From an uncultured Methanosarcinales archaeon (GTDB taxonomy: Archaea > Nanobdellota > Nanobdellia > Woesearchaeales > UBA525): a DNA stretch of 64,000 bases. Below, in pieces: positions 3,532-23,646 of this stretch (within the stretch, counting starts at the first letter, position 1; each line of letters opens with the position of its first letter). Under the pieces are notes generated by a model, which saw only the letters and a list, made by a program, of their open reading frames with translations, did no database searches and was not told the origin of the DNA. Position numbers and translations under genes: made by a program. Location of the stretch: positions 29,118-93,117 of the forward strand of contig CAZPUM010000001.1 in the NCBI GenBank assembly GCA_964589765.1, in the 5' to 3' direction.

Positions 3532-3555
3532 ACAGTAAGAATTTCAGTTATCTTA

Positions 3556-4206
3556 TTACTTCTTGCGCTTTTTTTGCTCTCCAAGCTTAATTCTGCCTGA
3601 TTTATCCACGTAAAGCCTTCCCTCCCTTAGGTCGCTTAGAATATTAAGTGATTCGGCAACATCCTTCTCAACCTTGAGGTTCACCTGATAGTCCAGGTCT
3701 GCTCGCATCTCGCTTTTGTCTGCTAGAATGTTCTGTGATATCAAAATGAAAGTTGCAAGGAAAATTGCTTCCAAGCTAACAACAAGGACGAGGAACTGAA
3801 AGGGGTATGGGTCGAACCCACCATATAGCATCAGATTTCTGGAGCCAGTATTCAGGTATATCCAGCTTCCAAACCAAATAATATGGAACCACACAAACCA
3901 TATGTTTCCCGCAAAATCTGCAATGGATTGAGCAAGTTTTACACTCCACCCTTCAACATGAGAAAATTCCGAGTTCAGGTTCTTGCTTACAAAATGAAGA
4001 ACCTCGTTTGTCTTGTACCATCCTTGTTCGTGACTTGGCAAAGAGCAGTCTGGACAAGGAGTAAAATTCTCTCCTTTTTTGAAGGGTGTTATTTGCTCAC
4101 ATTCACTACACTCATACATAGCAGAGGTTGGTACCTCCTCGGTCAATCTAAACTCGTGCTTGAACTTATTGATAATGCTTGTTGAATGGTGCTCACCCTC
4201 ACTCAT
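3556..4206 (-). CDS. DUF1003-family membrane protein with an N-terminal zinc ribbon.
   Basis: CxxC...CxxC at the N-terminus. Two TM helices with the conserved GSWxYL...FDPYPF...SLEAIFL...QN motif of DUF1003. Confidence 0.55.
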   Translation of the reverse strand: MSEGEHHSTSIINKFKHEFRLTEEVPTSAMYECSECEQITPFKKGENFTPCPDCSLPSHEQGWYKTNEVLHFVSKNLNSEFSHVEGWSVKLAQSIADFAGNIWFVWFHIIWFGSWIYLNTGSRNLMLYGGFDPYPFQFLVLVVSLEAIFLATFILISQNILADKSEMRADLDYQVNLKVEKDVAESLNILSDLREGRLYVDKSGRIKLGEQKKRKK

Positions 4207-4281
4207 TACCTGTTTTATAAGAAACTGTCTTTTAAATTATACTGTGGAAAACCTTATGAACAACCACGCGAAGGCCACTCC

Positions 4282-5610
4282 ATGGTGGAGAGACTCCCAG
4301 ACTGGGAGGGCAAGATTGAAGCCTTGACCCAGGAGGGACTTGGCGTTGGTAATTTCGAGGTAGAGGAAAACGGAAAAAAGTTCACTAGACCTATCTTTAT
4401 TCCGTTTACAGTCCCTGGAGATACCATTTCAGCCAAAATTAAAGAGAGTAAAGGAAAGTACAATTTTGGAGAGCTTGAGAGGGTCATTGAACCATCAGAA
4501 AACAGAATCGAACCCCGATGCCCTCATTTCACAATTTGTGGCGGGTGTAATCTTCAGCACGTGAAATACGAGACACAGCTTGGCGAAAAAGCCAGACAAA
4601 TCAAGTATCTTCTTGAAAGAAAGGGCATCACTATTCCTGAAAATATCAAGGTTTGGCCCTCCAGAAAACTGCACAAATACAGATGGCGTGCGAGGGTCGC
4701 AGTCGGATTTGGGCAGGGTATACGGGCGGGTTTCAGGAAGGCACACTCAAGAGAGATTGTTAAAATCAACCAATGCTACATTGTCGCCGGCGAAGTTATG
4801 GAGTTTATCGAACTTCTTAACCAACAAAAGTCAGAGCCCAAAGAGACGGAGGTTGAAATCACTGTTGTCACAGGGCAAAAACAGAAAGTGGGCATTTTAG
4901 TTCATCTCGACAAAACTAAAGAGACTGAGTACCTTAAGGAGTTCTTTTCAAACCTGTACGCGAACAACAGGAAACTGATCGGGAACCTTTTCTTTGAACA
5001 AAATGACCAAGTAAAAACCATAGGACAGGTTCAGGAACATATCACTTATCCTCTTGGAGATATGGAGTTCATGTTTCTTCCTGAAACTTTCATTCAGGCC
5101 AACATCCTGACAAACGACCTTTTAGTTAAGAGGGCAACTGAGCTTCTGTTCAAAGACCAAGACCCTCGTGATGCTGTTGTTTTAGATCTTTATGCAGGCA
5201 TAGGAAATTTCTCTTTGCCAATCGCTAGAATGTGCAAAGAGGTTATAGCTGTGGAGGGCCAAAAGAGTTCAGTTCTGGCTGGTGAGGCAAACGCTCTAAG
5301 GAATAAAGTGGATAATGTCAAGTTTGTACACAGTCCTACGGGAAAATTTCTTGGTAAGTACCGAAAGAAAAGTTCTAAAGCATCACACGCCATTATTGAC
5401 CCCCCAAGAACGGGTGTTTCTGACAAAGCGATGAAAGACTTATTGGGCTCTGAGATACCCAGAATTGTGTATGTGAGCTGTAATCCTATATCACTTTCTA
5501 AGGACCTACTCAAATTAAAAGAAAGGTATGACATCACTGAAATACTCGGTGTTGATATGTTTCCCGACGTGAGCCATGTTGAGGTTGTCGTACTACTTGA
5601 CAAAAAATAA
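4282..5610 (+). CDS. RNA (uracil-5)-methyltransferase of the RumA/TrmA family, with TRAM domain, Fe-S cysteines and a SAM methyltransferase core.
   Basis: TRAM-like N-terminus; CPHFTICGGCNLQH cluster; DLYAGIGNFSLP SAM motif; catalytic SCNP near the C-terminus. The internal start MVERL avoids overlap with the upstream gene. Confidence 0.8.
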   Translation: MVERLPDWEGKIEALTQEGLGVGNFEVEENGKKFTRPIFIPFTVPGDTISAKIKESKGKYNFGELERVIEPSENRIEPRCPHFTICGGCNLQHVKYETQLGEKARQIKYLLERKGITIPENIKVWPSRKLHKYRWRARVAVGFGQGIRAGFRKAHSREIVKINQCYIVAGEVMEFIELLNQQKSEPKETEVEITVVTGQKQKVGILVHLDKTKETEYLKEFFSNLYANNRKLIGNLFFEQNDQVKTIGQVQEHITYPLGDMEFMFLPETFIQANILTNDLLVKRATELLFKDQDPRDAVVLDLYAGIGNFSLPIARMCKEVIAVEGQKSSVLAGEANALRNKVDNVKFVHSPTGKFLGKYRKKSSKASHAIIDPPRTGVSDKAMKDLLGSEIPRIVYVSCNPISLSKDLLKLKERYDITEILGVDMFPDVSHVEVVVLLDKK

Positions 5611-5821
5611 TTAATTTCGTTATAGCAACTATTGATTTCTACCTTATTGAAATAAAATTTTTTAAATCCATATAGAAAGTAAATATCAAAATCAATACTA
5701 AAAACAACCAATTTAGTCTTAGAGAGGCTGAAACCTCCTAAAAACCAAATATTAGGGTTTTTTTCAAGACGGGATAACAATAAAAACAGGTAGTTCCCAA
5801 CCACCCTAGGGGGTTGATGAG

Positions 5822-7213
5822 TTGGCGATTGACCATAAAGACGCCAAAAAACTACTAAGTCAACTGGTCGTCAGACTGGAAAGAGTTGCTGTTTACGCAG
5901 ACGCAATGTACTCAGAGAACTCTACTTCTGTATACGCAAAAGACAAAACAGGCATACAGATGCACAACGACCAAGACGAAGGTGTCAAACTTCGCGCATT
6001 CGATGGTTCTAAGTTTCATGAAGCAGGAGTTCAGGGATTCAACCCAACAGCGCTGAAAAAAGCAACAGAACAACTGGTCGAGAGGGTTAAAAAATCCGAA
6101 AGAGGAATACAACTCACTCTGAAAATAGATAGGAAAACAAAAACAGCCCACTACACAACAATCGGCAAAGAAGACCCAAGGACCGTCGAGCCCAAAAGAA
6201 AAACAGAACTTCTTGAAAAAATTCACAAAGAGGTAATTGAAAAAGGGTTCCTTGAATGCCAAATGAGGTATCAGGAACAGACTGAACAGAGACTTTTCGT
6301 TAACAGATTCAAACAATTATCCAGCGAGTGGACGGGTTGTGTTCTAACAGTTATGCCGATGGTACAGGCCAAAACGGGAGAGATTAGAAGTGATTTCTTT
6401 AGGCGTTTTGGAAACGGGTTTGAAGTGACCGAGTTTAGTGAAGAAGAACTTGACAAAGTTCTGAAAAGAACCAAGAAACTCGAGAAGTCTAAACGAATCA
6501 AACCAGGAAAATACAAAGTGGTCCTGGCACCAAACGTAGCAGGGCTTCTCGCTCACGAAAGTTTTGGACACGGAATGGAAGCAGACACTATCCTTCACGG
6601 CAGAGCAAGAGCCGAACAGTATATCGGAAAAAGAATCGCATCCCCAAAAGTGAATATATGCGAAAACCCAGGATACGAAGGGGCTTACGGATACCTGTCC
6701 TTCGATGATGAAGGAATGATTCCCAATGAGATTTTCATGGTTGAACGCGGCGTAGTAAGAGACCCGTTGACAGACCTGGCAAGCGCCTCCAGAGGAGGTT
6801 TCAGGCGGAGCGCAAACGGCAGGTCAGAGGCTTTCGACCGAAAAGTGTACGCAAGAATGACAAACACCTACTTTAAGTCGGGAAAAGATTCGGTCGAGAA
6901 ACTAATAAAATCTGTGAAAGAAGGATACTATCTTCACTATGGAACCGCAGGAATGGAAGACCCACGAGGTTGGGGAGTACAGCTCTCAGGCATCCTTGCT
7001 GAAAAAATAAAGAATGGAAAACTGACAGGGGAACTTGTTGCCGAAGTTTCCATGGGGGGTTACCTGCCCGAAATTCTAAATAACATTACAGGAGTCGGTT
7101 CCGACTTCGAGATAGTTCACGACGCAGGACACTGCGCAAAAAACACAAAGGAGTGGGTGCGCGTTAGTAGTGGCGGACCCCACCTCTTGATTAAGGAGGT
7201 GCCTTTGTCATGA
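5822..7213 (+). CDS. tldD: TldD-family metallopeptidase; a TTG start is predicted.
   Basis: HESFGH (HExxxH) motif; TldD/PmbA fold signature GGxxxxxG; about 460 aa. Confidence 0.8.
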   Translation: MAIDHKDAKKLLSQLVVRLERVAVYADAMYSENSTSVYAKDKTGIQMHNDQDEGVKLRAFDGSKFHEAGVQGFNPTALKKATEQLVERVKKSERGIQLTLKIDRKTKTAHYTTIGKEDPRTVEPKRKTELLEKIHKEVIEKGFLECQMRYQEQTEQRLFVNRFKQLSSEWTGCVLTVMPMVQAKTGEIRSDFFRRFGNGFEVTEFSEEELDKVLKRTKKLEKSKRIKPGKYKVVLAPNVAGLLAHESFGHGMEADTILHGRARAEQYIGKRIASPKVNICENPGYEGAYGYLSFDDEGMIPNEIFMVERGVVRDPLTDLASASRGGFRRSANGRSEAFDRKVYARMTNTYFKSGKDSVEKLIKSVKEGYYLHYGTAGMEDPRGWGVQLSGILAEKIKNGKLTGELVAEVSMGGYLPEILNNITGVGSDFEIVHDAGHCAKNTKEWVRVSSGGPHLLIKEVPLS

Positions 7214-8898
7214 GTCCTAAGAAACCTGCCAAAAAAGCTGCTAAAAAAGGCAAGAAGGTTGTAAAGAAGGTCGTGAAAAAAAAGGTCGTGAAAAAATCTT
7301 CCAAGAAAAAAATAGTGAAGAGAATTACTAAACCTACAAAAGTTAAGAAAATCACCAAAAAAACAACCAAACCCAAAAAAGTTGCAAAAAAAGGCAAGAA
7401 GGTTGTAAAGAAGGTTGTAAAAAAATCTTCCAAGAAAAAAACAGCTAAAAAACCAACCCCAAAAAAAATTACCAAGAAACCCAAAAAAGAGATTAGAAAA
7501 GAGCTGGAGAAAAAACTTCTGATATCAGTATCAACACCTCAACCCAAGAAAAATATAGATTACCCTGTTCTTGAAGGAGCAAACATAACAAGAATTGAGG
7601 TTGCAAAAGATATTCTCAAAGAGATGAAAAAGAAACATCTCATCACAGACTGGAAAATCAACGCACTAAGCGTGAACAGAGCTAATATCTACACTGGAAA
7701 GGAGTTTGAGATTGAGAATCAGCTTACAGCTTATCGCGAAGATGTCACAGTAACAATCTACAAACGCCACAAAAACAACACAATGGGCGACGCACAGATT
7801 CAAATCACAAGCCATCTGAAACGCGACATAAGACAAGCACTGAACAAAGCTCTGCCTGTTTGTGAAGTGGCAAATAGAAAAGCGTTCCAACTACCTGAAC
7901 CTGTAGCAGACATCGAATTCCCAGAAGGACACGACAAAGAGATGTGGAATCTTTTCCAAACCGACAACAGCCTTGAGGTACCTCAAACAATTCTTGGCAA
8001 AGCAAAAAAGGCAAAATTACAGGAAGCACACATATCACAGTTTGAGGTCTTAACTTCAGCAAGTACACACAGAATCCTGAACAGTGAAGGCATAGACATC
8101 AGTTTCAAAAAAACTGCAGTGTATATCGAGGCAGCAATCCAGTCAGGAGACCAGGAGTTCTACACGAGCAGGTCAGGGGTTAGTCCCGTTCAGTTCGATA
8201 CAACAGAGATACTTGAGGATGCTGCTCTCCGCGCAAAAGATGCGGACTCCTCCAAAAAGGTAGAACCTTTCAAAGGGGATGTTCTCTTGACAAACGAATC
8301 ACTAGTCCAGTTTATGGCCAAGGGCGATGACATCAATCCTATTTTCATTCATGCCCTTGCGAGATGTGAACTTTTGGGAATGTCCAGACTTACAAAGGGA
8401 GAGCCAATAGGAGAATTCACAGGAGAATACCCTACAATCATGATTAATCCTAACCTACCGCTCGGGCTCATGACTGCCCCTGTTGATGATGATGGCACCC
8501 ATCTGAAAAACTACACTCTGTTCAGAAATGGAGTCTTCAGACGGCATATTGCGCCAGCAAGAGAAGCACAAGAACTTGGTGTGGAAGCAACAGGTCAGAT
8601 AAGTAACATCCACATTCAGGATGGTGCAACCCGTGAAGAACATCTACGGGGAGGAAACTACATAGAAATAGTGAGTTTTAGCTGGTTCCACCCCGACCCT
8701 TACTCAGGAGATTTCTCCGCAGAAATCCGCTTGGGTTACAAGTGGTATATGGGTAAAAAAACTCCCTTCAGAGGGGGCTTCTTTGTTGGCAACATTTTCA
8801 ACAGCATACTTTCTGTGAGGTTTTCTAAAGAGATTATGCAAGAAGGATATTATTATGGCCCCCGAGCAATGCTTTTCAAGGATGGTGAGATTCAGTAA
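7210..8898 (+). CDS. tldE: TldE/PmbA-family protein with an N-terminal lysine-rich, histone-H1-like repeat extension of about 100 aa.
   Basis: The C-terminal about 350 aa match PmbA/TldE and lack HExxxH. There is an ATGA overlap with tldD. The N-terminus is KKVVKK/KKxTKK repeats encoded by an internally duplicated DNA segment. Confidence 0.7.
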   Translation: MSPKKPAKKAAKKGKKVVKKVVKKKVVKKSSKKKIVKRITKPTKVKKITKKTTKPKKVAKKGKKVVKKVVKKSSKKKTAKKPTPKKITKKPKKEIRKELEKKLLISVSTPQPKKNIDYPVLEGANITRIEVAKDILKEMKKKHLITDWKINALSVNRANIYTGKEFEIENQLTAYREDVTVTIYKRHKNNTMGDAQIQITSHLKRDIRQALNKALPVCEVANRKAFQLPEPVADIEFPEGHDKEMWNLFQTDNSLEVPQTILGKAKKAKLQEAHISQFEVLTSASTHRILNSEGIDISFKKTAVYIEAAIQSGDQEFYTSRSGVSPVQFDTTEILEDAALRAKDADSSKKVEPFKGDVLLTNESLVQFMAKGDDINPIFIHALARCELLGMSRLTKGEPIGEFTGEYPTIMINPNLPLGLMTAPVDDDGTHLKNYTLFRNGVFRRHIAPAREAQELGVEATGQISNIHIQDGATREEHLRGGNYIEIVSFSWFHPDPYSGDFSAEIRLGYKWYMGKKTPFRGGFFVGNIFNSILSVRFSKEIMQEGYYYGPRAMLFKDGEIQ

Positions 8899-9439
8899 CT
8901 CTGACCCAGTCCTGGGACAAATCATCTAGCTCCTCACACCGCACATTCATCTCTTCCCAACCAGTATAGTTGACATCAGCAGTCATAGTTGTGATAACAG
9001 GGCGCGTAGTTCTGAAAGAAAGCCCGAAGTACTGCCTAAGTAGAGATATCATAACAAGTCCGTTTCCTGCCCACACACTTTGATGCGCTTCGTAACTCTC
9101 AACAAAACTCGTGGTAAGAGAATTAAAGGTCTCATAAAGAGCGGTTTCAACCGTAGGAGGGCGGGGGACTAAAGTCTCGCCCTCGACCAGTTTTTCAACC
9201 AACCCATAATCCAGAACTCTTCCAACGACAAGTTGATTTAAGACATTCACCCGGTCTTTCCCAACAATTGAAATTTTTATGTCACGGTCAATATAATCAT
9301 TTAAATCAATGAAAGACTGGACCATCTCTTTGTATAAAAGGTCATAAGAACAAGGCATGCTGAAACCTGCATTAGAAAGCTCATAAGAAGTGTATACTGA
9401 ATTAGCAAGAATCTCGACATATTTTGAGTGCATAAGCAT
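8876..9439 (-). CDS. Hypothetical protein.
   Basis: A 187-aa ORF with a clean start, lying tail-to-tail with tldE; no recognisable motif. Confidence 0.35.
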   Translation of the reverse strand: MLMHSKYVEILANSVYTSYELSNAGFSMPCSYDLLYKEMVQSFIDLNDYIDRDIKISIVGKDRVNVLNQLVVGRVLDYGLVEKLVEGETLVPRPPTVETALYETFNSLTTSFVESYEAHQSVWAGNGLVMISLLRQYFGLSFRTTRPVITTMTADVNYTGWEEMNVRCEELDDLSQDWVRVTESHHP

Positions 9440-9477
9440 GGTACTGAAATAATGTTATTAAACATAACTGGCAAAAA

Positions 9478-9489
9478 CCCTTATAAAGC
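9478..9489 (+). promoter_or_regulatory. BRE/TATA element CCCTTATAAAGC about 25 nt upstream of the Sec61beta ATG (leaderless); coordinates approximate.
   Basis: A TATA-like octamer at the canonical archaeal distance. The identical 12-mer recurs upstream of the gene at 39779. Confidence 0.4.
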
Positions 9490-9508
9490 GACCCATATTT
9501 GCACAATT

Positions 9509-9676
9509 ATGCCAAGAGACAACAAGGTAAGAATGCCCAGTTCAAGCGCTGGAGTACTCAGTTTTTACGATGAGGAAAGGTCCAAAATTCTACTAAAGCC
9601 GGCCCACGTTGTGGCCCTTTGTATAATAGTGGCACTCTTCGTCATGATGCTGAACTACACAAACATATTCGGGTGA
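9509..9676 (+). CDS. secG: Preprotein translocase subunit Sec61beta (archaeal SecG).
   Basis: MPRDNKVRMPSSSAGVLSFYDEE...single C-terminal TM matches the archaeal Sec61beta signature (SSAGL-RYY-EE). The track ORF starts upstream; the internal ATG sits at the correct TATA distance. Confidence 0.7.
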   Translation: MPRDNKVRMPSSSAGVLSFYDEERSKILLKPAHVVALCIIVALFVMMLNYTNIFG

Positions 9677-12709: not shown

Positions 12710-13132
12710 GTGTACAGTGACTACTTAACGCTCGAAGAGGCCGAAACCCGACTAAAAAACGTCCGACCACTACTCGAATCTGCGCGCAGACTAAAGAGAG
12801 AGATTGAGATGATAGCCGCGGGTTACGACTATGACACAACACTTCTTGAACACGAAATGCCACGACTTAACACCCTTGCGCATAAGCTAGGACTGAAACT
12901 TGAGAGAATGGAAGAACTCGGTTGTTACGTAAAAGACCTCGACATAGGAATAGTAGACTTTCTAACACAATTCGAAGGACGCGATGTTTTCTTAAGCTGG
13001 AAACTTGGCGAACATAAAATTCAGTTCTGGCATGAGATGGACGAAGGGTTCAGCCAGAGACAACCAATTCTCGACTTAAGTCAGCTCGACCTGGATTTCG
13101 AATTCGAAACTCCCCTCATGAATGAGGACTAG
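12710..13132 (+). CDS. Hypothetical protein.
   Basis: A 140-aa acidic ORF; no recognised domain. Confidence 0.4.
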   Translation: MYSDYLTLEEAETRLKNVRPLLESARRLKREIEMIAAGYDYDTTLLEHEMPRLNTLAHKLGLKLERMEELGCYVKDLDIGIVDFLTQFEGRDVFLSWKLGEHKIQFWHEMDEGFSQRQPILDLSQLDLDFEFETPLMNED

Positions 13133-13437
13133 TCAGGAAATTTACTCTTAATCTGAGATTCTACAGCCTCTAATGCAACCTTTACAGCAACAGGAAGCTC
13201 CCACGAATCTTTAGATGAGTGAATTGAACCCCCAGGATAGTTTACTCTTGCGTTAACCGCAAACTTCTGCCTGTCACCATCCTTTTGATATGCTTTTGTG
13301 TGAATTACAACCTCAAGTTCATTGTTAAGCAGTTGCTTATACCTGTCAGCAAACTTTGCTGCATGGTCATAAGCTAACTGAAAATGCTCTTCTTCCGTAT
13401 TAATTCCGTCAATTCCAACAAACTTCACATTAGCCAT
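13129..13437 (-). CDS. hpf: Ribosome hibernation promoting factor / RaiA (YfiA) family protein.
   Basis: Alignable to bacterial short HPF: ...VNARVNYPGGSIHSSKDSWELPVAVKVALEAVESQIKSKF versus [35 protein letters not shown]. Confidence 0.6.
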   Translation of the reverse strand: MANVKFVGIDGINTEEEHFQLAYDHAAKFADRYKQLLNNELEVVIHTKAYQKDGDRQKFAVNARVNYPGGSIHSSKDSWELPVAVKVALEAVESQIKSKFPD

Positions 13438-13683
13438 TTTATCACCCTAGGTTAAGAAAACAGAGCAACTATTTAGTTATTATGAAGGGGGTGGCCAAAG
13501 AATCATGATACAGGCGCGTATGGGGACGACAGAAGCTATGACCACCACCTACTAAAGTTAACGATAGTTTATTCTTAAATCTTTTCCACAATTAAAAACG
13601 CCTTTGCCCCGCAAAGTCAATTATTGGAAAAACAGCATTTATTGTTCATAAATACTTTAATACATAGCCACAATAGTCAAATT

Positions 13684-14496
13684 ATGGTAATAGACCTTTC
13701 CCCATATGATGATGAGTTCAAGAACCTCAAAAAGGACCTCAACATCAAACGCCAGAGAGAGACAACCCTTGCCAGCGTTAAAAGACGAGTGGCAATCCAC
13801 AGTGGCAAGGGAGGGGTAGGAAAGACATTCATGACTGTGAATGTAGCTTATGCCCTTGCCGAGCGAGGCTACCAAGTAGGCATTCTGGACGCGGACGTTG
13901 ACTGTCCAAACATCCCAAAGTTTTTGGGAATCACCGCGTCCATGAGAGTTGATCAGGACAAAAAATTCATTCCAATTAATCATCAGGGAGTTAAGATTGT
14001 TAGCATGGGCCTGACAAGAGACGACGAAGGAGAACCCTTCCTTATTCGAGGCCCAGCAAAACACAGGATAGCAATAGACCTCCTGACCAACACAAACTGG
14101 GGGGCATTAGACTTTCTGATTATAGACTTACCCCCCGGAACAGCAGATGTTCCTATGAGTTTACTTGAGTTTGGAAAAGTGGAGGAGATTCTTTATGTTA
14201 CAAGTCCTCAGAAAGACTCCTTAATGGATACAAGAAAATCCATAGAGATGGGCAGACAGTTCGGGATTCACGCAACGGGAATCGTGGAGAACATGTCAGG
14301 AGGATTCTTTGGCACAGGAAAAGCTCTGAGTCTCGCTGAAGAGACAGGGATTCCTCTTGTCGGCACAGTACCTCTTGACAAAAACATTCTTTCTATGAAT
14401 GAAAGAGGGGACATAGCTTTCACAGACGTAGATTTTGAAGAAGTCTCTAAACCGATTGTTGACGCCATTATTGCCAATCTCGAATCTAGGACATGA
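13684..14496 (+). CDS. apbC: Mrp/NBP35/ApbC-family Fe-S cluster carrier ATPase.
   Basis: Deviant Walker A GKGGVGKT; Mrp family signature. Internal ATG chosen about 28 nt downstream of a TATA-like ctttaata. Confidence 0.8.
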   Translation: MVIDLSPYDDEFKNLKKDLNIKRQRETTLASVKRRVAIHSGKGGVGKTFMTVNVAYALAERGYQVGILDADVDCPNIPKFLGITASMRVDQDKKFIPINHQGVKIVSMGLTRDDEGEPFLIRGPAKHRIAIDLLTNTNWGALDFLIIDLPPGTADVPMSLLEFGKVEEILYVTSPQKDSLMDTRKSIEMGRQFGIHATGIVENMSGGFFGTGKALSLAEETGIPLVGTVPLDKNILSMNERGDIAFTDVDFEEVSKPIVDAIIANLESRT

Positions 14497-15226
14497 GAGA
14501 TTCATAACCGACAGTTTCTATCTCATTAGCAAGCTCTTTTCCACCTGATTTTATTATTTTTCCGTCAGAAAAAATATGGACTTTATCAGGCACAACATAG
14601 TGAAGTATTCTGTTGTAATGAGTTATCAAAAGAGCGCCATGCTCAGGACCTCTAAGTTTGTTTATTCCTTCTGCAACAATTTTCAGAGCATCAACATCCA
14701 AACCTGAATCAGTCTCATCGAGAATAGCAAACTTAGGCATAAGCATAAGCATCTGGAGAATCTCCATTCGCTTTTTTTCTCCACCTGAGAACCCCTCATT
14801 AAGATAGCGCTTTGCGAAAGTAGGGTCAACCTTGAAATTGTGTAGTTTCTCATCGAATTTTCTGTGAAACTCAAGAACATCCTGTTCCTCGCCAGTAACT
14901 TCCTTCACTGCTTGCCTCATAAAGTTCTCAACAGTCACCCCTGGAATCTCTACAGGGTACTGGAAACTAAGGAACAACCCTTTTTTAGCACGTTCGTCTG
15001 GAGACCAGTCATTGAAAACCTCCCCATCAAGAAGCATAACCCCTTCAGTAATCTCATACTTGGGATGACCCATTATTACAAACGCGAGAGTGCTCTTACC
15101 ACTTCCATTTGGACCCATTAAAGCGTGGACCTCATTTGTATCTATCTCTAAGGATACCCCTTTCAGTATCTCTTTTCCATTGACACTTGCGTGAATATTT
15201 TTTAGTTCAAGAGTTGCCATTTTCAA
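14486..15226 (-). CDS. sufC: Fe-S cluster assembly ATPase SufC.
   Basis: GPNGSGKST Walker A; ABC signature SGGEKKR; SufC length. Confidence 0.9.
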   Translation of the reverse strand: MKMATLELKNIHASVNGKEILKGVSLEIDTNEVHALMGPNGSGKSTLAFVIMGHPKYEITEGVMLLDGEVFNDWSPDERAKKGLFLSFQYPVEIPGVTVENFMRQAVKEVTGEEQDVLEFHRKFDEKLHNFKVDPTFAKRYLNEGFSGGEKKRMEILQMLMLMPKFAILDETDSGLDVDALKIVAEGINKLRGPEHGALLITHYNRILHYVVPDKVHIFSDGKIIKSGGKELANEIETVGYESLMS

Positions 15227-16832
15227 CCTCCCTTATTGCGCACTGAGTAGCCCTAAGACCAAGCATTGCGCATCTTGCCCTGACAGGCTTTGTTGAGAAA
15301 TCTATCCCTGTTATTTTGTTTACAAAACTTAAATCCAGTTCCTGGACATCAATAACAGACATGCCTTTCAGCTTTGTTGTCAAAATGCTCATTGTTGCTT
15401 GCGATATCGCGCAACCATCGCCCATAAAAGCCACTTCCTTAATTTTGTCTTCAGAAACAACAACTGTTGCCTTGATTGTGTCTCCGCAATTAGGGTTTTT
15501 ACCAAGGCAACTATGACCTTCAATATCTTTTTTGTTTCTAGGGTTGAGCACATGGTCTCTGATATGCTCTTTAATCACTTCATCATCGACATCAATTGAG
15601 GCAGGGTCGTATGACTCGTTCATTGTATTTATGGCTTTGATTAGCCTGTCAACATCATCTTTTGTATTGTAAACCCCCAGGCTTATTCTGATAGTAAATA
15701 CTTCCTTGCCTGTTCCAATATCATTCTCATGCTCAAGACCTAACGCACAATGAAGAGGGTGTGTACAGTGGCTTCCCGCCCTCACAGCTATACCTTGCAT
15801 GTCAAGAGTTGAGGCAAAATCGTGGGGGTGCCAACCTTTCATAAGAACACTTACATCACCTATTCTGTTCTCAATTGTGTCAGGACCTATTATTGTTATC
15901 TCCGCGATATTTTTTAGCGAGTCCAAAAGATACTGAAGAACGTCTTGTTCGATTTTCTGAATCTTTACCCAACCCGTTTTTTGTATGAAATCTATCGCTG
16001 CCGAAAGCCCAACCGCCTGTGCTAGCGTGGGCGTTCCTGCCTCAAACTTTGCAACACCCTCTTTGAAAAGGGTGTCTTCAACCGTGACCTTTTCTACCAT
16101 TTCCCCCCCATAAATTACTGGAGGCCATGCTTTCAGAAGTTCTCTTTTTGCGTACAGGACTCCTATTCCAGAAGGCCCGTACATTTTGTGGGCGCCAAAA
16201 CAGTAGACATCAACATCAAGCGCCTTCACATCAACAGGCATGTGCGCAACTGCCTGCGCACCATCAACAACGAATGTTGCTTGTGGAGAATTTTCTCTTA
16301 CAATTTTACCAATCTCAACTATCTGATTTATAGTTCCAAGAACATTGCTCACATGTGTACAAGCGAAAACCTTCGTATTTTCGTTTAGTTTCTCTTTCAA
16401 CACCTCAAGGTCCAATCTGAAATCAGGAGTTATTGGAACAACATCAAACTTCAAGCCAAATTTTTTTGCCAGTTGTTGCCATACAACAAAGTTGCTGTGG
16501 TGCTCCATAATAGTTACAAGAACTTGATCTCCAGGTTTGAGTCCCTCAAATATTGCCCGCGCAGAAATATTCAATGCGAGTGTTGTTCCCGAACAGAAGA
16601 CTATCTCATCCGGTTCGGCATTGATGAACTGCGCGGTCTTATTTCTTGAATCCTCAAACGCTTTTGTTGCCCTTTCGGCAAGAACATGTGCACTCCTGTG
16701 CACATTTGCGTTGGAGGTCTCGTAGAACTTCCGTTCTGCATCCAACACCGCTTCAGGTTTCTGCGAGGTTGCCGCGGTGTCAAAGTAAACAATTCCAGGA
16801 TTGTTTTTTAGTAGGGGAAAAAACTCTTTCAT
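15207..16832 (-). CDS. sufS: Fusion protein: cysteine desulfurase SufS (N-terminal) plus a SufU/IscU-type scaffold domain (C-terminal).
   Basis: PLP-lysine motif GAHKMYGPSGIGVLY and RAGSHCTHP active-site Cys in the first about 400 aa. The C-terminal about 130 aa carry the three SufU cysteines (NCGD..., GDGCAISQA, RARCAML). Confidence 0.8.
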   Translation of the reverse strand: MKEFFPLLKNNPGIVYFDTAATSQKPEAVLDAERKFYETSNANVHRSAHVLAERATKAFEDSRNKTAQFINAEPDEIVFCSGTTLALNISARAIFEGLKPGDQVLVTIMEHHSNFVVWQQLAKKFGLKFDVVPITPDFRLDLEVLKEKLNENTKVFACTHVSNVLGTINQIVEIGKIVRENSPQATFVVDGAQAVAHMPVDVKALDVDVYCFGAHKMYGPSGIGVLYAKRELLKAWPPVIYGGEMVEKVTVEDTLFKEGVAKFEAGTPTLAQAVGLSAAIDFIQKTGWVKIQKIEQDVLQYLLDSLKNIAEITIIGPDTIENRIGDVSVLMKGWHPHDFASTLDMQGIAVRAGSHCTHPLHCALGLEHENDIGTGKEVFTIRISLGVYNTKDDVDRLIKAINTMNESYDPASIDVDDEVIKEHIRDHVLNPRNKKDIEGHSCLGKNPNCGDTIKATVVVSEDKIKEVAFMGDGCAISQATMSILTTKLKGMSVIDVQELDLSFVNKITGIDFSTKPVRARCAMLGLRATQCAIREVENGNS

Positions 16833-17701
16833 ACGGACACCTTCATGAACATTTTTTGTTTAATATGTTCTCCGTGACTTCCCATCCTGCTCAAAATACC
16901 ATCAAAAAACCCGTGAAGTATTAACTGCACTGCTGTTTTTGTAGGTATCCCTCTGGTTCTAAAATAGAATATCAGCTCATCATCCAATTGGCCCAGAGAA
17001 ACACCATGACTACATTTTACGTTTTCATTATTTATCTCGAGGTTGGGCTCAGCATCCATTTTCGCGTTCTCTGAAAGTAGTATTGTCTCCTCTTTCTGGT
17101 AAGCGTCACAATCTTTGGCATCTTTTTCAATACGAATCATTCCTTTATAGACACCTTCGCTTTCATCAAACATCACCGCTCTGGTTAACATGTTACTTGT
17201 GCTGTTCGGTCCTGCATGAATCATCATACTTTTTACGTCGCACTTGTTTTTGTCTTTACCCAGAACAACACTCTCAAATCTGGCATTGGACCCTTTGCCC
17301 GCCAGAAAACTTGTCACAGCAATCCTGCTGGTTCCTGATGTTGCGTCAACCCACATAATACTGGCGTCTGACATCAAGTGAGCATGTCTTGAAATCTGTT
17401 TATCAGTTGTTTCGCTGAAATATTTTATGAAAGCATTTGGGTGAACAAGAATGTCAATATTCGCACAACCTTCTGTTTTTTCAAGAATTGTTGCGTTTGC
17501 ACCCGGAGAAACAATTATTGTAACAGTCTCGTCTTCTGCCATACAAATCTCAACAGGCATGTCATTTACCCAAGTTTCAGGAATTACATAAACAACCTCT
17601 TTTCCTTTTCCAGGACGCCAACCAGGACAGTTCTGAAAGTGTGTCATCGCCCCATCCAATTTTTTGCAAGAGTCCAACCCCTGTAATGGTCTGAGTTTCA
17701 A
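16829..17701 (-). CDS. sufD: Fe-S cluster assembly protein SufD (short form).
   Basis: SufB/SufD C-terminal beta-helix signature (SHGVSLGQLDDELIFYFRTRGI); 4-bp overlaps with both neighbours. Confidence 0.75.
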   Translation of the reverse strand: MKLRPLQGLDSCKKLDGAMTHFQNCPGWRPGKGKEVVYVIPETWVNDMPVEICMAEDETVTIIVSPGANATILEKTEGCANIDILVHPNAFIKYFSETTDKQISRHAHLMSDASIMWVDATSGTSRIAVTSFLAGKGSNARFESVVLGKDKNKCDVKSMMIHAGPNSTSNMLTRAVMFDESEGVYKGMIRIEKDAKDCDAYQKEETILLSENAKMDAEPNLEINNENVKCSHGVSLGQLDDELIFYFRTRGIPTKTAVQLILHGFFDGILSRMGSHGEHIKQKMFMKVSV

Positions 17702-19119
17702 CCTACACTCCCCTCCATTTCAAGTTCTATCAGTTTGTTAAGTTCAACCGAGTATTCCAAAGGCAGAGCTTTCACAATCGGTTCAATAAACCCGCTGACA
17801 ACAAGCTGTTTTGCTCGTTCCTCAGATAGACCACGGCTCATTAAGTAGAATATTTCATCAGTTCCTATTTTTCCTACAGTAGCCTCATGCGCAATTGTAA
17901 CTTTATCGTTCGCAATTTTCATAGTCGGATAAGTGTTACTTGTGCTTTCCTCTCCAACTAACAACGCGTCACAATCGACACTAACCTTGCTGTTTATTGC
18001 TCTCTGAGTAACCTTTACCAAACCTCGATAAGAACTGATGCCCCCGTCCTTGCTGATGGATTTCGCAACTATGTTGCTGGATGTGTCAGGGGCCGCATGT
18101 ATCACCTTGCTACCAGTATCCTGGTTCTGACCCTCTGAGGCGAACGCGATTCCTAAACTGTCTGAACGCGCACCCCTCCCTGCCAGGATACTACAGGGGT
18201 ACAGCATTGTTACACCACTCCCAAGATTGCCGTTGATCCATTCTATCACCCCTCCTTCTTGAACAACGGCACGTTTAGTGTTCAGATTGTAAGTGTTTTT
18301 GCTCCAGTTTTCTACACTGCTGTATCGTACGCGGGCCCCTTTCATAACATGTATCTCTACGCATCCCGCGTGTAGTGCACTTGTGTTGAACTGAGGGGCA
18401 GAACACCCCTCGATGTAATGAACCTCACTTCCCTCATCGGCAATAATCAAAGTGTGTTCAAACTGACCGCCGTACTCGGCGTTCATTCTGAAATAGGCTT
18501 GAAGTGGAATCTTGACCTTGACACCTTTCGGTATATATATGAAGGTTCCTCCTGACCAGACAGCTGTGTGAAGCATCACAAATTTGTGGTCGTTAATTGG
18601 AACACAGGATGTCATAAAGAACCTTTTAACTAAATCTTCGTGTTCTCTAAGAGCTGTGTCCATGTTTGTAAAAATAACTCCTTGTGATTCCCATTCTTTC
18701 TTTAGATTGTGGTAAACAACTTCGCTGTCGTACTGTGCACCGACACCTGATAGAGATTTCTTTTCAGCTTCTGGAATTCCAATACGTTCGTATGTTTTAC
18801 GGATATCTTCCGGCAGGTCTTCCCATTTTGTAGACTCTGTAGCTTTTGGTTTGATAAAAAATTTGATTTTAGGAATATCTCTGATAAGTTTTGAAAGGTC
18901 AGGTCCCCATTTGGGAAAGTCGGTTTTGTTGTAAAGTTCCAAACCTCTCAACCTCTTTTGAAGCATCCAGAGTGGTTCTTTTTTTAGAGCACTGATGATT
19001 TTCACAAGCTCCCTATTTACTCCAGGGGGCGCTTCAAACTCCGGGTCATGTAAATTCGCAGAGTCATAACGCGAACGGTCTATGTTGAAAGTGCTCACAT
19101 CGAGCATCGGAAGTGCCAT
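17698..19119 (-). CDS. sufB: Fe-S cluster assembly protein SufB.
   Basis: About 470 aa; conserved SufB core (…AHEATVGKIGTDEIFYLMSRGL…). Confidence 0.9.
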   Translation of the reverse strand: MALPMLDVSTFNIDRSRYDSANLHDPEFEAPPGVNRELVKIISALKKEPLWMLQKRLRGLELYNKTDFPKWGPDLSKLIRDIPKIKFFIKPKATESTKWEDLPEDIRKTYERIGIPEAEKKSLSGVGAQYDSEVVYHNLKKEWESQGVIFTNMDTALREHEDLVKRFFMTSCVPINDHKFVMLHTAVWSGGTFIYIPKGVKVKIPLQAYFRMNAEYGGQFEHTLIIADEGSEVHYIEGCSAPQFNTSALHAGCVEIHVMKGARVRYSSVENWSKNTYNLNTKRAVVQEGGVIEWINGNLGSGVTMLYPCSILAGRGARSDSLGIAFASEGQNQDTGSKVIHAAPDTSSNIVAKSISKDGGISSYRGLVKVTQRAINSKVSVDCDALLVGEESTSNTYPTMKIANDKVTIAHEATVGKIGTDEIFYLMSRGLSEERAKQLVVSGFIEPIVKALPLEYSVELNKLIELEMEGSVG

Positions 19120-19361
19120 TATTCCCCTCTTTTTGGCGTGCCTTCAGAATATTCATCGAGTTGTTTCAGTGCTTTCTCAACACCATCACTCTTATCTTCT
19201 AGTTGAATCTCAGGAGTCAGTTTTGATATCTCTGGAAGATTCTTTTTTGGCAAAACATCTTCAGGGAAGTCCTCTGCCAGAGCATCTATTTCATTCGCCT
19301 CTTGTTCTGATACATCTCGTCCGTCCGCAGTCATGTTGTTGTATTTTTTCATTTGAAACAA
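19119..19361 (-). CDS. Small acidic hypothetical protein.
   Basis: An 80-aa ORF lying between the regulator and sufB. Confidence 0.25.
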   Translation of the reverse strand: MFQMKKYNNMTADGRDVSEQEANEIDALAEDFPEDVLPKKNLPEISKLTPEIQLEDKSDGVEKALKQLDEYSEGTPKRGE

Positions 19362-19708
19362 ACATCACACCCTTTGGGTATGCCTCCTTCCAATTTTTCG
19401 TGAAGTTTACAGATAAAGCGCTGTTTTTTTGCCAGAGCAATTATTTTTTGCGTCTCCTTAATCATCATGTTAGTGTCAGTGATTTTTGGCGCCGCATTTT
19501 CTATAGCTTTTATCAGCTCTTTTGGAAATTTAACAGTTTTCCCCCTTTTTTCTTTGAGGTACTGGCTTACAGCAGACTCTGTAACCCCCAGAAGCTCTGA
19601 AATCTTCTTCTGCGACTTGCCTGAAGACTTCATGGCTATCGCCAGTTCCCTTCTTATCGTCGGGAGGATATAATGGACTTCCACTTCCTGTGGTTGCAAC
19701 AGCTTCAT
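19349..19708 (-). CDS. HTH-type transcriptional regulator with a C-terminal Cys cluster.
   Basis: HTH (ISELLGVTESAVSQYL); C-terminal CKLH...CDVC; first gene of the suf operon. Confidence 0.55.
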   Translation of the reverse strand: MKLLQPQEVEVHYILPTIRRELAIAMKSSGKSQKKISELLGVTESAVSQYLKEKRGKTVKFPKELIKAIENAAPKITDTNMMIKETQKIIALAKKQRFICKLHEKLEGGIPKGCDVCFK

Positions 19709-19748: not shown

Positions 19749-20723
19749 CTAATAAGGCCTTCTTGTTCCATCTTCGTCCACATGGAAGTCCTCTAGAAAG
19801 TCTTCTACCGTTATAGGGTACGGTTTTTCGTAGAAGTTATGGTCGTACCTGCCCAGAATCTTGAAATCGAAATGTGAAATACCCTGTGCCCAATCCCTGA
19901 GTCGTTCTCTCACATTATCGTTATGGTCTGAATCTAGTATCTCAACACCGTTTTTGTTGACCTTGACAAAATAGGCCCATCCTCTAGCGCCCCCATCGTA
20001 GTCTTGAAACAGTTTGTAACAGTTTCCATCCGCTGAGACTCTGTCATTTCTGGACAACATCCTGATAATATCAGGTTCAGGATTCTCATAGTTAATATCT
20101 TGGGGCCTATGATGGTTACAAAGAACAACTGTTTTCCTGTTGATATAGATTCCCGCGCCTTCCAGTAACCAAGAATAAACGTTGGCCTCCTGTTTTAGGA
20201 AGAAAATGTTTGGCCCAGAACCCCCAACTAACATATCAAAGATTGAGCCCATATTTAGTTGGAATCTGAAACTATCTGCGACATGAATTTTACCACCCAA
20301 ACATTTTGCCCAGCACTCTGCGTCCTCACCGACAAAGCATCTGTAAATATCCCCTCTTCTGATAAGAGCCTCTGATACTTCGTCCACTTTTTGTGGTCGC
20401 TTTGATTTGGCCTTTTTGTATTCCTCGACACGCTCAGCGGGACTCTTACTTTGAAGCCTTTCTGTTTTTGAAGTAGTCAGTAACTCTTTATGGACAACCA
20501 TTGTTTCAACAGTCCCTTCCAGGTCCTTGTCGAAGTTTGGCCTGTATGTCCTGGCATCAATAACTCTATTATCTTTCAAAGAAAATTCAGAAAGCTCTAT
20601 TTCTACAGGAAAACCCGATTCTGGCTCTTCTGCGAACACAACATCTCCATCCGCCGTGGCGTCGAGAACTGCTCTTTCGAGCCTCCTGGCTGAATCCATC
20701 TTCACGTATATTTTCCTGCCCAT
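19749..20723 (-). CDS. Hypothetical protein.
   Basis: About 325 aa with an internal start 25-30 nt downstream of a TATA-like catataaata; no recognised family. Confidence 0.4.
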   Translation of the reverse strand: MGRKIYVKMDSARRLERAVLDATADGDVVFAEEPESGFPVEIELSEFSLKDNRVIDARTYRPNFDKDLEGTVETMVVHKELLTTSKTERLQSKSPAERVEEYKKAKSKRPQKVDEVSEALIRRGDIYRCFVGEDAECWAKCLGGKIHVADSFRFQLNMGSIFDMLVGGSGPNIFFLKQEANVYSWLLEGAGIYINRKTVVLCNHHRPQDINYENPEPDIIRMLSRNDRVSADGNCYKLFQDYDGGARGWAYFVKVNKNGVEILDSDHNDNVRERLRDWAQGISHFDFKILGRYDHNFYEKPYPITVEDFLEDFHVDEDGTRRPY

Positions 20724-20810
20724 GCCATAATAGTAAAAAAGCACTCATATAAATATTCTGTAACAAGAAAATTACATAATAGTTAATAAGGGCAATCCCC
20801 GCACAATATT

Positions 20811-21339: not shown

Positions 21340-22317
21340 TTAATTCTCCTGAGGAACAGCCTGAATAATGATTGGCTGTTCGATGAACTCTCCGTACCTG
21401 TACTCAAGCTTGATGTCCATTGCGTCCGTATAGACCCTTGTTGCCGGACTACCACCAATTACTGTACATGTTACGGTCTGCGGGCTTCCTGCAAACAGAG
21501 TCACAATACCTGAGCCACCGCCACCAAGTCGTCCACATGATACTGTAGCACTCGGGTCCTGCATACTGACGTCCACATCGACCTTGAACTTATTACTGTT
21601 AGTAAAGCTGGGGTCACAGTTTTCATCAGGTTGCCTGCCGTAGAACTCTCCTGGACCGATGTGGTCTAGAACGAAGTTCACCATGATTCTGTTATCGGCC
21701 ATTGGACTCTGAGATACACCTGTGACATGAACAGGACCGCCTGAATTGTGGAAAGGCCTGTCTCCAACAAGAGTACATATGCTGTTGTCCTGAACGTTCT
21801 CAACAATCTCGTCTTTGAAGCATAGTTGTGTTGTGACATCAGTATGATAGTCGTAACATGCTGTTGCTCTGATTGTTATCAGGTCGTTACCCTGTCTTCT
21901 TCCCTGATAGTTCAGGTTGTCGAAAACAAAGTTTGTCACAAGCCCTCCAATTATTGTGCCATCGAAATTTTTCTGAGCACCACGGACCGGTTCCTGTAAT
22001 GTTTGTTGCATGTCCGCCTCTGTGATTCCGAAGTTTGACGGGTTGATACCCTCCAAACGCATCGTCATGTACGGGTTTTCAGTTCCCGGACCGATGTCGG
22101 CTTCACCGACGTTCTCAACAACTATATTGACGCTGAACGGGTAGTTTCCTCCGTCGTAGACTGCCGGAGGAGGAGCGCCATCCTGTAAGTAAAGCATAAC
22201 TCCAAGGTTTCCTCCAATGAAAGGGTCTACAACAGGGCCTCCCTGACCGCCTCCACCACAACCCGTTAGGATTAGTAGCGAAAGGACTACTGGTATCAAG
22301 AGATTCCTTGTTTTCAT
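21340..22317 (-). CDS. Secreted lipoprotein (lipobox LTGC), paralog family member A.
   Basis: Signal peptide plus Cys lipobox and a G-rich linker. Carries the shared module ...TACYDYHTDVTTQLCFKD...GGPVHVTGV.... Confidence 0.6.
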   Translation of the reverse strand: MKTRNLLIPVVLSLLILTGCGGGGQGGPVVDPFIGGNLGVMLYLQDGAPPPAVYDGGNYPFSVNIVVENVGEADIGPGTENPYMTMRLEGINPSNFGITEADMQQTLQEPVRGAQKNFDGTIIGGLVTNFVFDNLNYQGRRQGNDLITIRATACYDYHTDVTTQLCFKDEIVENVQDNSICTLVGDRPFHNSGGPVHVTGVSQSPMADNRIMVNFVLDHIGPGEFYGRQPDENCDPSFTNSNKFKVDVDVSMQDPSATVSCGRLGGGGSGIVTLFAGSPQTVTCTVIGGSPATRVYTDAMDIKLEYRYGEFIEQPIIIQAVPQEN

Positions 22318-22326
22318 TTTTCCACC

Positions 22327-23646
22327 TTATACTATTCTTTTAATTTGTACTTGTCTCTGTTGTGTCTGACTGTAACCATACCACAACTCTACAACAAGTG
22401 GTGCTTGGTATGCCGACTTAAGGTTGGCAAACTGAAGCGGATATGAACATGTTGTGGTTCCCCTTTCTGTCTTGGGATCCAATCTTATGACTTCAGGACT
22501 ACACTCGATTCCACCACGACCGCCACGGCCTGAAAGACCCAGTGTTCCAACTCTGACGTCACCAAGATAAACAATATTCTTGTGTTCAGGAGTAACTCTT
22601 CCAGGATAGTAGGGACTACACCTTTCAAGGTGACCTGCATCCCAGACCGTTCCGGAACCTACATTCTGAACATTAATTCTGAAAATAATCTTTTGCGGTG
22701 TGTTTTCCTGCTCAATGCTTGTGATTGCTACAGGAGCGCCGTTTCCTCCGTTCCATGTTTTACTCTGAGGATAGCAAACCTTTCTTATGTCAGAGTAAGG
22801 GTCAGGGTCTATACAGACAATCGGGTCTGCGTATGTTGTGTACTGGTAGCACGTTGTCAGCAAGAAACTCTGAACTGTCTGGTCAAGACCAGGAGGCCAG
22901 TTCACAATCTTTCCATTGTAAAGCAGATAATCTGTTTCGCCTCCTGGAAAATTATAGTCGTCCGCCGCCAGGAGGAATTCACGGCCGTTATGAATTCTGT
23001 AGTCAATCCCCGCGAGAAGCGCGATGAAAAGACGGCCGTTCTGATAATATTCAACGTTTCCAAGAATATTGTCTATGTTGAATGAGAACACTGAGCCAGA
23101 GGGGCTATCTGTATAGTCTATACCAATATCGAACTTTGTGGGGTCCCACCAGGATGAACCATGCCTACCAGAGATTGCGTTGATTAAATCAGCCAAACTG
23201 TCTAACCTGACTCTGGCTGTGTCCCCCCCGTAGTTTACCTCTAGGCCGTCACACCTGAATATACCTCCGTAATCTCCAAATCCTATGTTTCCGAATGTGA
23301 ACCCGCATGCACCTATGCCTCCTTCAGTTATACTGATTTCGTCAAAGACAAGTAGACTTGGGTCGAACCCGCTAACAAAAATTCCTCCTCTAGTATACGA
23401 TGCTCCTTTGTTTTGTAGGGCAACTCCGAAAGAGAACTCATTGTTTGAGTTATCCTGGGGACCATAATAGTACAGTCTCTGAGGAAGTCCTTCAAAATAT
23501 GATTCAACTCCTTCCTTACCTTTATAGTAATTTGCGTACTCGTTAATTCTATTATTATCGTTACCGCCTGAACCACACGCCGTCACTAAGAACATAGTTG
23601 AGACTAGCATCAGAAACAACACCAACCTGTTCTTCGTCATCACCAC
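22327..23646 (-). CDS. Secreted lipoprotein (lipobox VTAC), paralog family member B.
   Basis: Signal peptide plus lipobox. Shared module ...TTCYQYTTYADPIVCIDPDPYSD...NGAPVAITSIEQEN. Confidence 0.6.
   Translation of the reverse strand: MVMTKNRLVLFLMLVSTMFLVTACGSGGNDNNRINEYANYYKGKEGVESYFEGLPQRLYYYGPQDNSNNEFSFGVALQNKGASYTRGGIFVSGFDPSLLVFDEISITEGGIGACGFTFGNIGFGDYGGIFRCDGLEVNYGGDTARVRLDSLADLINAISGRHGSSWWDPTKFDIGIDYTDSPSGSVFSFNIDNILGNVEYYQNGRLFIALLAGIDYRIHNGREFLLAADDYNFPGGETDYLLYNGKIVNWPPGLDQTVQSFLLTTCYQYTTYADPIVCIDPDPYSDIRKVCYPQSKTWNGGNGAPVAITSIEQENTPQKIIFRINVQNVGSGTVWDAGHLERCSPYYPGRVTPEHKNIVYLGDVRVGTLGLSGRGGRGGIECSPEVIRLDPKTERGTTTCSYPLQFANLKSAYQAPLVVELWYGYSQTQQRQVQIKRIV

Follow-up and report, generated by a model that had tools for sequence, protein, structure and literature searches.

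How does an archaeal iron–sulfur cluster assembly operon come to encode its sulfur donor and its sulfur acceptor as one polypeptide? The question is raised by a window of 64,000 nucleotides (nt) from an uncultured archaeon (GenBank assembly GCA_964589765.1, contig CAZPUM010000001.1, positions 29,118 to 93,117 of the forward strand; all coordinates below count from the first letter of this window). Here, a suf operon on the minus strand contains a 541-residue protein that joins a cysteine desulfurase, SufS, to a SufU-type sulfurtransferase. An earlier reading of the bare letters (the sequence-only reading) had described the gene order as non-canonical and the protein as a SufS–SufU fusion, and had taken the whole for a minimal module of possibly bacterial origin. 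In our analysis, this is very probably a genuine SUF iron–sulfur assembly operon of a Woesearchaeota-like DPANN archaeon, with a SufS–SufU protein made by the joining of neighbouring genes; its activity, its binding of zinc and the route of sulfur through it are what we infer.

The operon consists of six minus-strand open reading frames (ORFs), arranged head to tail from 14486 to 19708. An ORF check found all six exactly where the sequence-only reading had placed them, and with families assigned by profile, the order that it gave (regulator, small ORF, sufB, sufD, sufS–sufU, sufC) is borne out. The operon, the parts of the fusion and the convergent neighbouring gene are as follows:

19349–19708, minus strand: helix-turn-helix (HTH) regulator, first gene of the operon, 119 aa (Pfam HTH_3)
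19119–19361, minus strand: small acidic ORF, 80 aa, conserved; its start is probably the ATG at 19352
17698–19119, minus strand: sufB, 473 aa (TIGR01980), intein absent
16829–17701, minus strand: sufD (SUFBD_core), 290 aa, a short form without most of its N-terminal domain
15207–16832, minus strand: sufS–sufU fusion, 541 aa
15618–16832, minus strand: SufS domain of the fusion (residues 1–405), type II cysteine desulfurase dependent on pyridoxal 5'-phosphate (PLP) (Aminotran_5, TIGR01979)
15579–15617, minus strand: linker of the fusion, from SufS to SufU (about residues 406–418), with a low predicted local distance difference test score (pLDDT), aligned to the SufU tail of an unfused relative (locus L088)
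15207–15578, minus strand: SufU domain of the fusion (residues 419–541 and the stop codon), short-form, predicted zinc-type sulfurtransferase (NifU_N)
14486–15226, minus strand: sufC, ABC-type ATPase, last gene of the operon, 246 aa (TIGR01978)
13624–14496, plus strand: convergent P-loop ATPase of the Mrp/NBP35 family without CXXC (PF10609), with 11 nt of overlap between its stop and that of sufC

Taken as the longest ORFs, successive genes overlap by 13, 1, 4, 4 and 20 nt. The last of these overlaps is probably 14 nt, since a GGGAGG motif upstream of the ATG at 15220 makes this ATG the more likely start of sufC. We infer that the six genes are probably co-transcribed.

The fusion protein is recognized by two separate Pfam profiles, Aminotran_5 at residues 15–397 (440 bits) and NifU_N at residues 421–535 (57.5 bits). 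In an alignment to the solved structure of Bacillus subtilis SufS, its SufS domain reaches about 43% identity; the protein scores 471.9 bits against the SufS model TIGR01979, marginally under the cutoff of 475.1. All residues that distinguish type II SufS, the SufU-dependent class, have aligned equivalents: the PLP-binding lysine K216 (K226 in B. subtilis) lies within GAHKMYGPSGIGV, the catalytic cysteine C356 (C361) within the motif RAGSHC, and His337 corresponds to H342, the zinc-ligating histidine that partners SufU and whose position is occupied by a tyrosine in SufE-type SufS (PMC12803347). Directly after the catalytic-cysteine loop, the window protein carries an 11-residue insertion of low pLDDT, HENDIGTGKEV (about residues 366–376; about 15705–15737, minus strand), which is absent from all other aligned relatives, fused and unfused. 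A PLHCALG motif near this insertion provides a second cysteine, which is common to the closest relatives, P0002, P0003 and L088.

Among solved structures, B. subtilis SufU (5xt5_D) matches the C-terminal domain best. The residues C449, D451, C474 and C521 align to C41, D43, C66 and C128 of that protein and are found in the motifs C449-G-D451, G-C474-AIS and R518-A-R-C521-A (...PVRARCAM). R518 is the equivalent of the conserved arginine three positions before the last cysteine, R125 in B. subtilis (PMC13066941). The site thus has the Cys/Asp/Cys/Cys set and the arginine of SufU, with neither a histidine before the last cysteine nor an LPPVK motif. Across both domains, K216, H335/H337, C356, C449-G-D451, C474 and C521 are invariant in 12 of 12 aligned fused proteins. 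Profiles and residue alignments therefore agree with the sequence-only reading that the 541-residue protein holds a complete desulfurase, here of type II, and a SufU-type domain with all of its ligands; that reading had made alignment of the C-terminal domain with SufU a check on itself, and the domain passes it.

Among the NCBIfam models, the SufU model TIGR01994 fits this domain best (68.4 bits), with profile positions 4–94 matched. The spacing between its second and third cysteine (C2–C3) is 47, compared with 60–67 in Firmicutes, Actinobacteria and Acidobacteria, and the same short form, with a spacing of 45, is also found free-standing beside SufS in Anaerolineales and in archaea. Judging by spacing and motifs, the C-terminal domain is a short-form SufU, not the canonical Firmicutes type. 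An AlphaFold model of the fusion (pLDDT 85.5, predicted template modelling score 0.77) shows both domains with confidence and a disordered linker, with pLDDT below 50 at residues 411–416; this linker is about 10 residues shorter than those of the other fusions. The model superposes on SufS structures with template modelling scores of 0.90–0.93, and no chain among the 50 best-matching solved chains listed spans both the SufS and the SufU domain.

Of the remaining SUF components, SufB and SufC are readily recognized. SufB scores 670.6 bits against TIGR01980 (cutoff 346) and, in an alignment to 5awf_A, retains the sulfur-acceptor cysteine C239 (C254 in Escherichia coli) as well as the cluster-site residues C383 (C405) and H411/E412 (H433/E434). 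SufC reaches 331.5 bits against TIGR01978 (cutoff 212.8) and is accordingly classed as the SufC ABC-type ATPase. SufD matches SUFBD_core with 184 bits and aligns to residues 253–411 of E. coli SufD, with the C-S-H motif (C358/H360 in E. coli) conserved and the N-terminal domain largely missing from its 290 residues. In several relatives, SufB is interrupted by inteins with LAGLIDADG or Intein_splicing matches (L084, 103–2244; L088, 3608–6181; L092, 1621–3219; L005, about 3274–5829).

The fusion has many relatives. Fused proteins are present in at least 11 other protein clusters (P0002, P0003, P0008, P0009, P0010, P0017, P0018, P0020, P0027, P0138 and P0195), of which P0008 has 18 members and P0009 was recovered on 13 contigs from JGI, ENA, NCBI and Logan. 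Where the loci of fused relatives were read, sufC lies directly downstream of the fusion in five of six. The layout HTH-small ORF-B-D-SU-C in L086 and L087 matches the window exactly, while L001 to L003 have HTH-B-D-SU-C-DUF59, L084 has B-D-SU-C-DUF59 with an intein in SufB, and L085 has B-D-SU-C. A locus from the P0008 cluster, L089, reads B-SU-C-DUF59 (5573–9595) and has no sufD; it may therefore pair a cysteine desulfurase with a scaffold of the SufB2C2 type. Finally, in L090, a lone fusion adjoins an IscS/NifU-like pair, away from sufBCD.

How the fusion arose is indicated by an unfused Woesearchaeota locus, L088, which contains an HTH gene, the small ORF, SufB with a LAGLIDADG intein, SufD (273 aa), SufS (391 aa), SufU (144 aa) and SufC. 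Its sufS and sufU overlap by 4 nt, and the linker of the window fusion aligns to the N-terminal tail of its free-standing SufU. Because this locus keeps the same order with overlapping sufS and sufU, the fusion is, on the evidence of gene order, a simple gene join: two adjacent, overlapping genes became one through the loss of one stop/start junction, in a layout that the clade already had. In L091 (2800–4941), the D|S junction is fused instead, which yields a 713-residue SufD–SufS protein; a 108-residue ORF that follows it and runs to the contig end is probably sufU. In the long-read contig L092, the order is again the same, and errors have split up some of its genes.

In a neighbour-joining tree of SufS domains, fused proteins appear in about five places among unfused ones, with weak support. 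One clade of 20 members (bootstrap 71), to which the Woesearchaeota locus L088 belongs, holds the window protein, P0002 and P0003 at scattered positions. A single origin of the fusion is therefore disfavoured, although at this low resolution recurrent fusion and fission cannot be separated. As for the host, the ribosomal proteins L3 and L4, the phenylalanyl-tRNA synthetase PheRS and the primase subunit PriL of the window match archaeal models, and all named relatives of its L3 are Candidatus Woesearchaeota (49–64% identity). By these markers, the host is a Woesearchaeota-like DPANN archaeon, and the suf module is well established in a Woesearchaeota clade, where it is conserved. We rejected a recent horizontal acquisition, given that the G+C content of the operon (0.42–0.435) equals the window average and that its layout is common to relatives at 33–80% protein identity. 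The bacterial origin proposed in the sequence-only reading is plausible as the ultimate source of the module, according to the literature, in which another system, SMS, is the one kept mostly in Archaea (PMC12192291).

Two other explanations of the fusion protein have to be weighed. The sequence-only reading had itself named one of them as what would overturn the fusion, namely a sequencing or assembly frameshift that joins separate, overlapping sufS and sufU genes. With an overlap of 4 nt, as in unfused relatives, a single indel could indeed join the two genes. Moreover, the window protein comes from one contig of a metagenome-assembled genome, is the one member of its cluster and is not on record as an exact protein in the contig index, and several of its nearest neighbours in the rough SufS tree are unfused. 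Yet fused proteins were recovered many times independently in other clusters (the 13 contigs of P0009 come from four sources), and in P0002 and P0003, the fused proteins closest to it, the linker is in frame and homologous to that of the window. Within the window itself, one frame is open across the junction and the other two are full of stops, and the linker stays in register with the SufU N-terminal tail, with no local scramble. Furthermore, in the one error-rich long-read assembly that we looked at (L092), errors split genes rather than fused them. With fused homologs in many independent assemblies, most of them in the same layout, the objection mostly fails, and we regard an artefact as highly improbable.

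According to the other explanation, the C-terminal domain is a scaffold of the IscU/NifU type, and the protein a self-contained pair of desulfurase and scaffold, like NifS/NifU or IscS/IscU, on which clusters would be built directly. The Pfam match is to the generic NifU_N, the domain stays below the curated cutoff for SufU, and two relatives would fit such independence, L089 by its lack of SufD and L090 by its position away from sufBCD. In addition, the C2–C3 spacing of 47 is nearer to that of E. coli IscU, which we take to be 43, than to the 62 of B. subtilis SufU. These points are met by the details of the site and by its context. NCBIfam ranks SufU (68 bits) above NifU_clost (51) and IscU (42.6, with a cutoff of 192), and the best solved match is to SufU. 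The residue before the third cysteine is arginine or lysine (arginine in the window) and not the histidine ligand of IscU; the HscA motif LPPVK is absent; and instead of a GCGSAIASSS-type motif there is GCAISQATMS, which has the SufU form GC(A/S)IS. The domain also conserves the equivalent of R125 (PMC13066941), and its short form occurs free-standing as SufU beside SufS in the Anaerolineales and archaea mentioned above. Lastly, the domain to which it is joined belongs to type II SufS and has the SufU-specific histidine, and the gene sits inside sufBDC. An IscU/NifU-type scaffold is thus highly improbable, and we retain a SufS–SufU fusion within a genuine SUF operon.

A number of points weigh against this interpretation. 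A single-base assembly error at the junction keeps a small probability in this contig, and identity to the window protein is down to about 50% even in the nearest fused relatives. The SufU domain misses the curated TIGR01994 cutoff of 92.5 bits with its 68.4 bits, because it does not have the insertion of about 15–21 residues between C2 and C3 that is typical of Firmicutes SufU and its actinobacterial counterparts. Likewise, the truncated SufD, owing to its short length, reaches only 188 bits against TIGR01981, whose cutoff is 222. The tethered SufU may serve the SufS domain of its own chain or that of the other chain in the dimer, and the archaeal members of this group are known from sequence alone.

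By analogy with B. subtilis, where zinc-ligand swapping between SufS and SufU and the roles of H342, C41 and R125 have been described (PMC13066941; PMC12803347), the fusion could work as follows. The PLP-dependent SufS domain would desulfurate L-cysteine and leave a persulfide on Cys356. The tethered SufU domain would then dock by a zinc-ligand swap, in which His337 replaces Cys449 on a zinc ion held by D451, C474 and C521. Once released, Cys449 would take up the persulfide and hand the sulfur to C239 of SufB (C254 in E. coli) in a SufB-SufC2-SufD scaffold, on which the cluster would be built at C383/E412 of SufB and a histidine of SufD. With donor and acceptor in one chain, their stoichiometry would be fixed at 1:1 and their local concentration would be high, and the fusion may bring a selective benefit. 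As in the (DSU)2B2C4 complex of oxymonads (bioRxiv 10.1101/2023.03.30.534840), it is the desulfurase dimer as a whole that would have to dock with the scaffold.

The operon is headed by a small regulator of the XRE/HTH_3-like type, which passes the Pfam HTH_3 cutoff narrowly (23.3 bits) and ends in the motif C100-x2-H103-x10-C114-x2-C117. Its homologs stand directly upstream of sufB in L001, L015, L086, L088, L091 and L092, so that at least six related suf loci are headed by it. The family comprises 77 protein clusters of about 117–138 aa with a conserved C-x2-(H/C)-x10-C-x2-C tail, and the organism names on record for it are Woesearchaeota only. Among 74 family members, C100 and C114 are each conserved in 99% and C117 in 95%, while position 103 is histidine in 80% and cysteine in 16%. 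Because the three cysteines of the tail are conserved to this degree, the comparison suggests that the protein senses a metal or an iron–sulfur cluster, possibly as an undescribed regulator of suf operons in archaea. The small acidic ORF that follows has no Pfam or NCBIfam match. It has homologs between the HTH gene and sufB in L086, L088, L091 and L092 (35–44% identity), which share the motifs ED(V/F)P..LPKKNLP and DGxxKA(L/M)xxLxEY, and both position and motifs are kept in five loci.

The sequence-only reading had also pointed to an Mrp/ApbC carrier encoded convergently next door. The gene is there: with 217 bits on PF10609, its product belongs to the Mrp/NBP35 fold and family, though it stays under the curated cutoffs of the MrpORP and ApbC models. 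When it is aligned with 8zkc and 2ph1, a deletion takes the place of the segment bearing the CXXC motif. The carrier role is unsupported, because this C-terminal CXXC, which binds the bridging [4Fe-4S] cluster, is absent. An orthologue near the suf operon of L088 (65% identical) is likewise without CXXC. Both proteins have a cysteine in a DADVDCPN motif, at a place where canonical Mrp proteins presumably read DADIYGPS.

Further along the window, a 331-residue ORF without a Pfam match (19749–20744, minus strand) stops only 40 nt before the start of the HTH gene, which has the same orientation, and may or may not be co-transcribed with the operon. The DUF59/SufT gene that follows sufC in L001, L084 and L089 was looked for in the window and not found, and scans of the window for tRNA genes and Rfam families gave no matches. 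Promoter-like sites were at chance level in a scan with a bacterial model, which is the wrong one for an archaeal host; in a bacterial terminator scan, with a model equally wrong for an archaeon, terminator-like sites reached only about twice the chance expectation. At 21340–23646 (minus strand), two large adjoining ORFs (325 and 439 aa) have a signal-peptide-like start followed by a cysteine and a glycine-rich stretch (..LTGCGGGGQGG.. and ..VTACGSGGNDN..), and by these features look like lipoprotein-type surface proteins. On the other side of the operon, a gene for a DUF2203 protein (12710–13132, plus strand) is convergent with a 102-residue ORF (13129–13437, minus strand), which has a weak match, 20 bits and below the cutoff, to the ribosome-hibernation factor family S30AE.

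Outside the relatives described here, the arrangement appears to be rare. We scanned a profile built from 12 fusions against species-representative genomes of bacteria and archaea. None of the 80 loci listed, a sample in which the genome of the window does not appear, contains a true fusion, as 'full-length' matches proved to be adjacent sufS and sufU genes in different frames, and in none of these loci does sufC come after sufS/sufU; the orders are C-D-S-U-B, B-D-C-S-U, B-C-D-S(-U) and C-B-D-S-U. In an exhaustive search with the SufU domain, three of the best 150 cluster representatives are fused. Literature searches for SufS/SufU fusions, for SufSU and for SUF in combination with DPANN yielded no description of a prokaryotic SufS–SufU fusion, and a systematic survey of archaeal fusions mentions only one of CysH with SufS. 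Such fusions have been published for the eukaryotic Preaxostyla, as SufSU in Trimastix and as SufDSU in Monocercomonoides, Paratrimastix and other oxymonads (PMC6231488; bioRxiv 10.1101/2023.03.30.534840). The oxymonad fusion, which let Monocercomonoides and its kin replace the mitochondrial ISC system, was called unique, and its prokaryotic donor was left unresolved (PMC6231488).

The operon is, in sum, a modest lineage-specific variant of the well-known SUF system, in its fusion and its gene order, and the principle of the fusion is known from eukaryotes. Its components and likely chemistry are those of the textbook. What is new is the packaging: a covalent prokaryotic SufS–SufU, in an order, B-D-SU-C, that we saw only in DPANN-type archaeal contigs, together with a small Cys3-His HTH regulator at the head of the operon and a conserved small acidic protein between this regulator and sufB. 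For studies of persulfide transfer and zinc-ligand swapping, a single-chain pair of donor and acceptor would be handy, as there is no transient complex to trap. For evolutionary questions, it matters that a fusion termed 'unique' to the amitochondriate oxymonads has prokaryotic counterparts, which bears on the origin of the oxymonad SUF system, and that reduced DPANN genomes appear to make iron–sulfur clusters with a full SUF system, not with the archaeal SMS system.

The closest biochemical model is the SufS–SufU relay of B. subtilis and other Gram-positive bacteria (PDB 5XT5; sufCDSUB). The window system shares with it a type II SufS with PLP-lysine, catalytic cysteine and zinc-swapping histidine; a SufU with Cys/Asp/Cys/Cys ligands, an arginine three positions before the last cysteine and no histidine; and SufBCD encoded alongside. 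It differs in that both proteins form one polypeptide with a linker of about 13 residues, in its short-form SufU, in the order B-D-SU-C as opposed to C-D-S-U-B, and in its archaeal host. The actinobacterial sufRBDCSUT operons and the sufBCDS(U/E) operons of Proteobacteria, Bacteroidota and Acidobacteriota contain the same set of components and are likewise headed by a dedicated regulator. In those operons, however, sufC comes before sufS, and the regulators (SufR, IscR and others) come from families different from that of the XRE-like HTH protein of about 120 aa with a Cys3-His/Cys tail that we find here.

Within the archaea, the natural comparison is the SMS system (SmsCB), a form that is kept mostly in Archaea and lacks SufD, SufS and SufU (PMC12192291). 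Its scaffold is homologous to that of the window, being of the SufB/SufC type. Nevertheless, the window SufB fits the SUF model TIGR01980 (670 bits) and reaches only 270 bits on the SmsB model, against a cutoff of 650, and the operon adds SufD, SufS and SufU. The description as a 'minimal' module in the sequence-only reading has therefore to be given up: this is the full set of SufB, SufC, a short SufD, SufS and SufU, not a two-gene SMS.

The closest counterparts in architecture are the SufDSU and SufSU proteins of Preaxostyla, in which SufS is likewise N-terminal to SufU. MeSufDSU mobilizes sulfur in E. coli and forms complexes with SufB and SufC (bioRxiv 10.1101/2023.03.30.534840). SufD is immediately upstream in both cases, but SufDSU (about 1366 aa) unites SufD, SufS and SufU in one polypeptide, whereas the window has SufD as an ORF of its own, overlapping the next by 4 nt, and only the S–U junction is fused; L091, in turn, fuses SufD and SufS. 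The SufU spacing in Preaxostyla, C1281–C1351 (70, from the residue numbers of the preprint), is nearer to the long bacterial form, a weak argument given eukaryotic insertions. In Woesearchaeota-type loci, D, S and U form a tight string of overlapping genes; the D|S junction is fused in L091, and the S|U junction in the window and in L086. That this string is the closest prokaryotic counterpart of oxymonad SufDSU, and possibly its donor, is a most improbable proposition in our estimate.

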